Source: Amphiscolops sp. MND2022 (taxonomy: Eukaryota). Taken from it: a DNA stretch of 64,000 bases. The notes below the pieces were generated by a model that had not been told where the DNA came from, did not search any database, and worked only from the letters and a program-made list of their open reading frames with translations. Shown here one piece after another: positions 22,538 through 22,743 of this stretch. The translations under genes were made by a program, and so were the position numbers. Within the stretch, counting starts at the first letter, position 1, and each line of letters opens with the position of its first letter. Location of the stretch: contig OZ076409.1 in NCBI GenBank assembly GCA_964187785.1, forward strand, positions 68,574,001 through 68,638,000. Direction: 5' to 3'.

Positions 22538-22743
22538 GTGGTACGGCGGTTCACCTTAAATGGTTGAACTGCTTGGAATAGATGCCACTGTGATTGTTGA
22601 CGGTTTTCTTCAACAAGTCTTCCCAAGAGACAAAAACCACAAAGAAAAATTGTGCTATGGCGGTTCGCCTTAAATGGTCGAACTGCCTGGAATAGATAGC
22701 ACTGTGACTGTTGATGTTTTAATCAACAAGCCTCCACAGAGGC
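22538..22743 (+). repeat. Two-copy (114-nt period) structured RNA element with compensatory changes
   Basis: Stems covary between the two copies (see findings). Confidence 0.75.

Follow-up and report, generated by a model that had tools for sequence, protein, structure and literature searches.

A near-invariant 33-nt core common to Gypsy retrotransposons, a Polinton and Pol III-type genes of Amphiscolops sp., possibly an RNA docking site for a host factor

In CTEs of the MPMV type, symmetric internal loops bind NXF1. More generally, multi-stem non-coding RNA elements that lie past the replication genes of LTR elements and are expected to act through a host factor include the MPMV CTE, MusD MTE, IAP RTE and MER11 CTE (available part of PMC11379458). 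A second group, consisting of adenovirus VA RNA, EBER and the BLV miRNA cluster, combines internal A and B boxes, a terminal stem and a T-run with a virus-like carrier. The SINE central domains CORE, V, Deu, Ceph and Meta are short conserved blocks, common to several families, that occupy the middle of Pol III-type repeats; what such domains do is treated as an open question in the accessible text of PMC4824008. Finally, in the TDMD triggers HSUR1 and MCMV m169, one short site with a fixed-free-fixed layout serves in two settings, a small non-coding RNA in one case and a 3' UTR in the other (PMC10899785, text available in part). Apart from the NXF1-binding loops, the sequence described here, in one or another of its settings, shares the listed features with these four systems. 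How the long multi-gene RNAs of invertebrate env-bearing retrotransposons are exported, retained and expressed is largely unknown.

The window, that is, the whole 64,000-nt stretch of Amphiscolops sp. DNA that was analyzed, contains a 19-kb env-bearing Gypsy LTR element (13231-32362), a young insertion with LTRs that are 98.8% identical (Table 1). Like the env-bearing Ty3/gypsy elements of metazoans (PMC13524379, text examined in part), it encodes gag, pol and a gB-type fusion ORF; in that paper, the main text does not contain 'acoel', 'promoter' or 'splic', and the text examined does not mention the tandem module described below. A gap of 2.2 kb separates pol from the next ORFs of the carrier, and a tandem non-coding module lies just after pol, as the first-pass annotation had noted, with 281 nt between the pol stop at 22294 and the first core. 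We tentatively favour, at somewhat less than an even chance, the interpretation that one host RNA-binding factor docks on this core at the RNA level, the site being of the export or stability type on the Gypsy RNA and possibly a decoy on a small RNA. Several other features of the element deserve mention. The MATH/TRAF-domain ORF located just 5' of the 3' LTR (29491-30264; E 8e-22) may be captured host cargo, and the start of the pol frame (17426-18000), ahead of the RT, has a weak match to the Macro domain (PF01661, E 0.089, under the cut-off). Each LTR contains three copies of a 33-nt repeat with a near-palindromic start, 92-100 nt apart (14367-14706 and 31424-31763), which are a candidate enhancer array. 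A second GC-rich block with hairpin potential (22930-23050) is alignable to the diverged relative L165, whereas the neighbouring sequence differs.

Table 1. Features of the tandem module and of the Gypsy element that carries it (positions in the window)
Feature	Position	Strand	Basis or remark
5' LTR (TG...CA)	13231..15282	+	4-bp target duplication outside
gag (15301-16719) and protease frame (16689-17603)	15301..17603	+	Pfam scores under curated cut-offs
pol: RT, RNase H, integrase	17426..22294	+	stop 281 nt upstream of first core
Unit 1: P1 enclosing P2, core, P3, P4	22538..22631	+	self-alignment, folding, stem check
Unit 1 core, 33 nt: three blocks at fixed spacing, with two free bases and one C/T position	22574..22606	+	genome pattern searches
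Unit 2: P1-P4	22652..22743	+	folding z -6.7
Unit 2 core, 33 nt	22688..22720	+	genome pattern searches
P1, units 1 and 2	22538-43/22583-88; 22652-57/22697-702	+	pairing check
P2, units 1 and 2	22545-55/22562-73; 22659-69/22676-87	+	pairing check
P3, units 1 and 2	22595-600/22610-15; 22709-14/22723-28	+	pairing check
P4, units 1 and 2	22617-21/22627-31; 22730-34/22739-43	+	pairing check
Fifth hairpin (P5) after unit 2, then T-run	about 22746..22797	+	8 loci folded
Two accessory ORFs, mutually related (29% identical)	24464-24901, 25636-26268 (24464..26268)	+	no Pfam match
env-like ORF	26799..28955	+	Monjiviricetes fusion glycoprotein PF24664, E 4e-39
Unnamed ORF (28912-29475) and MATH-domain ORF (29491-30264)	28912..30264	+	ORF/Pfam reading
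3' LTR	30288..32362	+	98.8% identity to 5' LTR

The two units are spaced by 114 nt and align without gaps over 76 nt at 84% identity (95 nt at 83% by blastn), and the tandem is retained in window-type relatives. All four stems named in the first-pass annotation pair in both copies at the positions given in Table 1. Unit 2 folds with a z-score of -6.7 (0 of 200 shuffles as good; -5.4 for its reverse strand) and unit 1 with a z-score of only -1.7 (16 of 200 shuffles; -0.6 for its reverse strand), the values with wider flanks being -4.8 and, for unit 1, -3.5. Within the window lineage, 94.9% of the P1-P3 cells pair in an alignment of 22 units from 12 loci (23 units were extracted and one decayed unit was omitted), compared with 22-49% in slid controls. 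Of the 13 Polinton copies, 12 carry an A.C mismatch in P1, which is mismatched in most lineage A copies as well. Two-sided changes affect 2 of 23 pairs in these 22 units, one in P1 and one in P2, both tracking the split between copy 1 and copy 2, and the number of pairs with such changes in this alignment of the window lineage does not exceed that in shuffles (496/500). P3 has none. P4 contributes one U-A/C-G two-sided change and folds in all copies examined except for two decayed ones; it is also kept in the Polinton copy, with a longer stem and a loop identical to that of unit 1. The arms of P5 co-change in the diverged relatives among the 8 loci that were folded. Thus, the four-stem fold of the window lineage is real and its covariation amounts to about three events, roughly one each for P1, P2 and P4, so that the claim of compensatory changes in all four stems was overstated. 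Two further sequences had been called invariant. Only 12 of 23 units have the loop CCTTAAATGG in exact form, its centre is missing from the six other sequence classes checked, and the ends of the loop pair; the bulge does belong to an invariant stretch, which at 33 nt is longer than had been proposed.

A tandem, intergenic module that recurs in several transposon classes could generate a subgenomic RNA, either by cleaving itself as a ribozyme or by blocking an exonuclease with its fold, and by eye the GGA(A) of the core could form 3-4 bp with the P4 loop. Nevertheless, an Rfam search over 21500-24000 yielded only three chance matches at E<=10, and for seven other loci only generic hairpin matches away from the core, with no known self-cleaving ribozyme or xrRNA family matched; furthermore, the core pairs differently in different lineages, unlike a catalytic fold, and an uncapped product in lineage A would need another translation route. 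We consider this explanation improbable, and nothing specific was found in support of either of two roles initially proposed, a packaging signal and a novel ribozyme.

The conserved unit extends far beyond the window. The 19-nt pattern GGAATAGATNNCACTGTGA, taken from the bulge and P1, has 3,117 exact matches in the genome of 1.07 Gb, with more diverged versions possibly escaping such a search, and the reversed control has 0. The first 30 loci comprise four of the window type, 12 of a Gypsy lineage denoted A, 13 of lineage B and one of a non-coding class, and in all 30 of them the third block, which is outside the search pattern, is present. The complete core of about 33 nt consists of a purine-rich block, two free bases (the first nearly always R), CACTGTGA, one C/T position, TGTTGA, TG and a series of T's. 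Ten lineage representatives agree with one another at 22 of 26 core positions, and their mean pairwise identity is 0.90 in the core versus 0.31 and 0.27 in the flanks; the representatives having been found by the exact pattern, the first two blocks are under ascertainment in these figures, from which the third block and the genes chosen by their 5' end are free. Between lineages, only 34-43% of the fourfold-degenerate sites agree, the proteins are 32-68% identical, and in the comparison of the intergenic regions of lineages A and B the core is the sole significant match. Variants at single fixed positions are rare (24, 68 and 59 genome matches), as are the 3' blocks without the 5' block in register (14 matches, mostly indel-decayed copies) and the first two blocks without the third (34 matches versus 11 for the control, mostly the inverted part-copy of one lineage). 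Protein coding does not account for this fixity, which is independent of codon position: no frame is favoured in five pairwise comparisons, and indels and stops occur in all frames.

Inverted part-duplications and local duplications do occur around the core, and independent compensatory events are few, as would be expected if it were a passenger fragment spread by recombination, with stems perfected by template switching rather than selection. This possibility is highly improbable and largely refuted by the 22 of 26 identical positions amid randomised flanks and silent sites, the sharp edges of the conserved block and its retention in the diverged subfamilies that were read.

The secondary structure around the core is far more variable. 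Folding z-scores range from -4.8 to +0.9 over 21 representatives, and the pairing partners change: TGTTGA pairs with a downstream arm in the window, the CTGTGA block and the purine block pair with an upstream inverted part-copy in lineage B, and the small genes described below use other arms. In general, the free bases of the core do not covary with P1. As judged from these sequences, the selected unit is mainly the linear core rather than the four-stem fold, other lineages retaining the core with different or weak stems; the core is read directly and the stems are secondary, since each lineage pairs it differently and its free bases show no general covariation with P1. Accordingly, of the argument that covariation with invariant loops betrays a selected RNA structure, two parts find support, namely that a non-coding element is under selection and that it acts as RNA, but what is selected is mainly the linear sequence. 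The purine block is predicted to be mostly unpaired (0.62-0.82) in 7 of 11 contexts, with values of 0.26-0.31 in two more; in lineage B it is buried (unpaired probability 0.13-0.14), which suits a DNA site better than an exposed RNA loop and thus speaks against an RNA docking site. The inverted part-copy of lineage B lies directly 5' of the core (L046, L080, L082) and forms with it a hairpin of about 43 nt with a 5x5 internal loop, which could mask the core or yield a small antisense RNA.

At least three Gypsy lineages, between which silent sites are saturated, contain the core, and in those read it is on the sense strand behind the last replication gene. The distance from the stop of that gene is 210-281 nt in lineages A, B and the window (210-253 nt past the env stop in most copies of A and B with an open env end) and 512 nt in one decayed relative. 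As predicted from this position, the core would be contained in the unspliced RNA, on the sense strand and downstream of pol or env, as are CTE and RTE. Lineages A and B (L164:5123-6433 and L166:4959-6308) share, right after the core, an accessory ORF of 430-450 aa that is 40% identical between them and has no Pfam match.

The same position would also suit a DNA element, namely an internal Pol II core promoter driving a subgenomic accessory-gene transcript that starts at about +30. The core consists of three blocks at fixed spacing between the replication genes and the accessory ORFs; it is insensitive to the RNA pairing context, with an inverted part-copy in lineage B; and in lineage A it ends 10-15 nt ahead of an ATG at +39 to +45, an arrangement that suits a promoter and counts against a docking site. 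Lineage B has GTAAGT at about +62 and the next ATG at about +200. On the other hand, the nearest recognised ORF in the window is 1.7 kb away from the core, and the three lineage-B matches without the GT donor are all point changes, none of them spliced. The core has no match in the LTRs of the carrier, in the rest of the window or near the U1, U2, U4, U6, SRP, SL/5S and rRNA genes; an snRNA-type promoter was likewise rejected, with no profile match near the U1, U2, U4, U6, SRP and SL genes. Furthermore, in the Pol III-type genes considered next, the core is located mid-gene and no conserved ORF follows it. An internal promoter would account well for lineages A and B but poorly for the small genes and for the window, and is on the whole unlikely.

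Outside the Gypsy elements, the core was found in a Polinton, recognised by a match to the protein-primed polymerase B, where it is located near the terminal tandem repeats and points away from the first ORF; in one examined set, 13 of 30 loci are of this kind. In L162:1616-5100, Polinton-like ORFs are accompanied by at least five degenerate core copies, which occur in both orientations. No core matches were detected in metagenome contigs or in viral contigs (0 each).

The third setting is a family of non-coding genes of 215-230 nt, longer than VA RNA, that are found inside large repeats; at 19 loci, the large repeats around the non-Polinton members have no match to the Polinton or Gypsy proteins tested. 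We counted 423 5' ends of this family and 373 matches with a B box plus the core. The Polinton-borne and repeat-borne genes have one common layout and the same 5' end, and a long interrupted rod joins both of their ends. Consensus sequences of type 2 promoters (accessible part of PMC12498455) comprise an A box, TRGYNNARNNG, near +10 and a downstream B box, GGTTCGANNCC. Both boxes of the 215-230-nt genes fit this consensus, with the B box varying at its two free positions: in the four genes checked, the A box is at +11 (without mismatch in the Polinton gene and with one in the others), the B box at +67/68 and a T-run at +211 to +226. The T-runs are solely terminal in two of the four genes, whereas the two Polinton genes also have TTTT at +133, just past the core. 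Neither a SINE nor SRP (7SL) RNA accounts for the family, given that upstream flanks are common to the copies, no target duplication or LINE-like tail was seen by eye, and carrier loci have no Metazoa_SRP match while 11 canonical SRP genes are found elsewhere. Compared with SINE central domains, which are 60-80 nt or more in length (PMC4824008, available part), the 33-nt core is far less variable and is also present in LTR elements and a Polinton.

In 42 genes chosen by their 5' end, taken from 40 regions picked among the first 100 listed, the core is at +99 to +107 in 38, three have an insertion in the third block and one is truncated. Departures within the core versus the rest of the gene number 31/550 versus 352/3542, 10/400 versus 166/2576 and 10/100 versus 100/644, so that in summary over the 42 genes departures are roughly half to two thirds as frequent in the core. 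On the strand of the core, the rod contains 73 G.U and 18 A.C oppositions, as counted in 10 related and therefore non-independent representatives. An RNA site is favoured because the core lies midway in the Pol III-type gene and on the strand that forms this G.U-rich rod. Several observations weigh against an RNA docking site: the opposite strand of the Polinton-borne gene folds better (-95 versus -79 kcal/mol), TTTT follows its core closely, and covariation is thin in the window lineage and also in 12 Pol III-type genes, where RNAalifold found two-sided change in only 3 of 33 pairs.

The units of the window and the Pol III-type genes have words of 10-11 nt in common beyond the core (shuffle p of 0.0005 and 0.001 for the two best among 24 comparisons), and by eye P2 resembles the B-box hairpin split by an insertion. 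On the basis of these shared words and this likeness, a common origin of the unit and the tip domain of the Pol III-type RNA is probable. The window copies themselves have no B box within one mismatch and are interrupted by T-runs (six in 22465-22810), so that they do not qualify as Pol III type 2 genes and stand apart from viral Pol III RNAs. The 215-230-nt genes differ from the latter by the lack of an Rfam match and by the reuse of their tip domain in a Pol II retrotransposon RNA.

With one site shared by a small non-coding RNA and 3' UTRs, the situation is reminiscent of HSUR1 and the 3' UTR of MCMV m169, which target miR-27, and raises the possibility that the core is a host miRNA or piRNA site that sponges or destroys the small RNA. 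Its fixed 8 nt, two free bases and fixed 10 nt resemble a seed, a central gap and 3' pairing, and the R and C/T positions would fit tolerance of G.U pairs. However, the third fixed block falls outside a 22-nt site, the validated triggers described in the available part of PMC10899785 leave 3-11 nt unpaired compared with only two in the core, and no candidate miRNA hairpin with the same spacing was found in the 14 loci folded of the 34 two-block matches. Such a site therefore appears quite unlikely.

The host has SL trans-splicing, and the core might instead steer splicing or trans-splicing by pairing with U2 snRNA or SL RNA. The best duplex involves nearly the whole core and the branch-recognition region of U2 (p 0.002-0.13 for U2 nt 1-60 and 0.03-0.37 for the whole U2), and the SL RNA loop contains a 7-nt complement. 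Yet U2 is the best of about eight RNAs tried and is not significant after correction; the predicted drift of T+4 to C fails (19 C, 30 A and 10 G among 59); the first AG past the core varies in position, from +35 to +60 or more; and SL-core junction copies number 0 in the genome. A role in splicing is very improbable, and U2 as the partner, although the pairing is suggestive, was rejected upon the failure of the wobble prediction. Pairing with 18S, the 28S-side region, 5S, SL, U1, U4, U6 and SRP RNA was not significant. The complement of the core is unfit for a T-arm in a comparison by eye with the standard tRNA layout, which argues against a tRNA primer site. A TURBS (termination-reinitiation signal) needs an 18S complement and an upstream ORF that ends at the restart site; here, the longest 18S complement is 6-8 nt and the upstream stops are more than 200 nt away, which speaks against such a signal.

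We return to the docking site, which among these explanations remains the one we tentatively prefer. A host factor would dock on the core and export or stabilise the long unspliced retrotransposon transcript; the reader is more plausibly a host factor than an element-encoded one, since the sequence is equally rigid in carriers as different as a retrotransposon clade, a DNA transposon and the Pol III-type genes. The choice of an export or stability step is a guess guided by the position of the core, which follows closely on the last replication gene in an unspliced RNA of great length, and by analogy with CTE-type elements, and on these grounds the export element of CTE/RRE type proposed in the first-pass annotation stays the leading candidate role. 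There are differences from the CTE type as well: the predicted fold in the window has a one-sided bulge and no twin, symmetric internal loops of the NXF1 type, and a 33-nt linear core with lineage-specific stems, found also in a Polinton and in Pol III-type genes, takes the place of a fixed fold. The 215-230-nt genes would be transcribed by Pol III, with the core displayed at the tip of the rod, and their RNA would probably engage the same factor, either as a decoy or as a carrier; the window lineage would hold this tip domain in two copies, and the local stems would tune access to the core, not define it. A near-invariant core common to Gypsy, Polinton and Pol III-type genes provides one bait for the host factor and one site to mutate, and if the small genes are expressed, VA-RNA-like biology would extend to Polintons.

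A bolder and doubtful version holds that three classes of mobile elements converged on one 33-nt handle on a host RNA pathway, the env-bearing Gypsy elements in cis on their genomic RNA, and the Polinton and hundreds of Pol III genes via a VA-RNA-like decoy. If true, this would be an RNA 'password' that works across classes and throughout the genome and, as far as the literature search joining Polintons and Pol III RNAs goes, the first VA-like RNA in a Polinton. In the main text of openly accessible papers, none of six 18-letter forms of the core occurs, and searches there retrieved no paper on the conserved structure, none that joins Polintons with Pol III RNAs and, among the acoel small-RNA papers listed, none on a counterpart. 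By the tests run, the core belongs to none of the classes compared. Its mode of action would most resemble that of a post-transcriptional element of retroelements; on the small genes, the nearest parallels would be a VA-type RNA or a SINE central domain. With respect to TDMD triggers, an extra third block and only two free bases distinguish the core (PMC10899785, available part).

Some minor observations concern the genes surveyed. In one class of Pol III-type genes (L076-L078, many pairs), the genes face inward, 1.3-2.8 kb apart, within multi-kb palindromes, one of which has an assembly gap at its centre. Eleven bases located 5' of a U6 gene (L340, approximately 1456-1466) match the P2 loop region of unit 2, probably by chance. 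The genome contains 2,058 exact matches to 20 letters of the spliced leader of the acoel Symsagittifera roscoffensis (accessible text of PMC9911081); the leader is a sequence other than the core, which is thus neither a spliced leader nor an SL RNA. A 904-bp tandem array in L155 (C1:16374000-16377000) is made up of SL RNA genes in alternation with a 5S rRNA-like gene; the SL exon there terminates in AG, followed by GTAAG, and so lacks one base of the published leader. Dispersed leader copies without the SL intron (L150-L154) are probably retrocopies of trans-spliced mRNAs.
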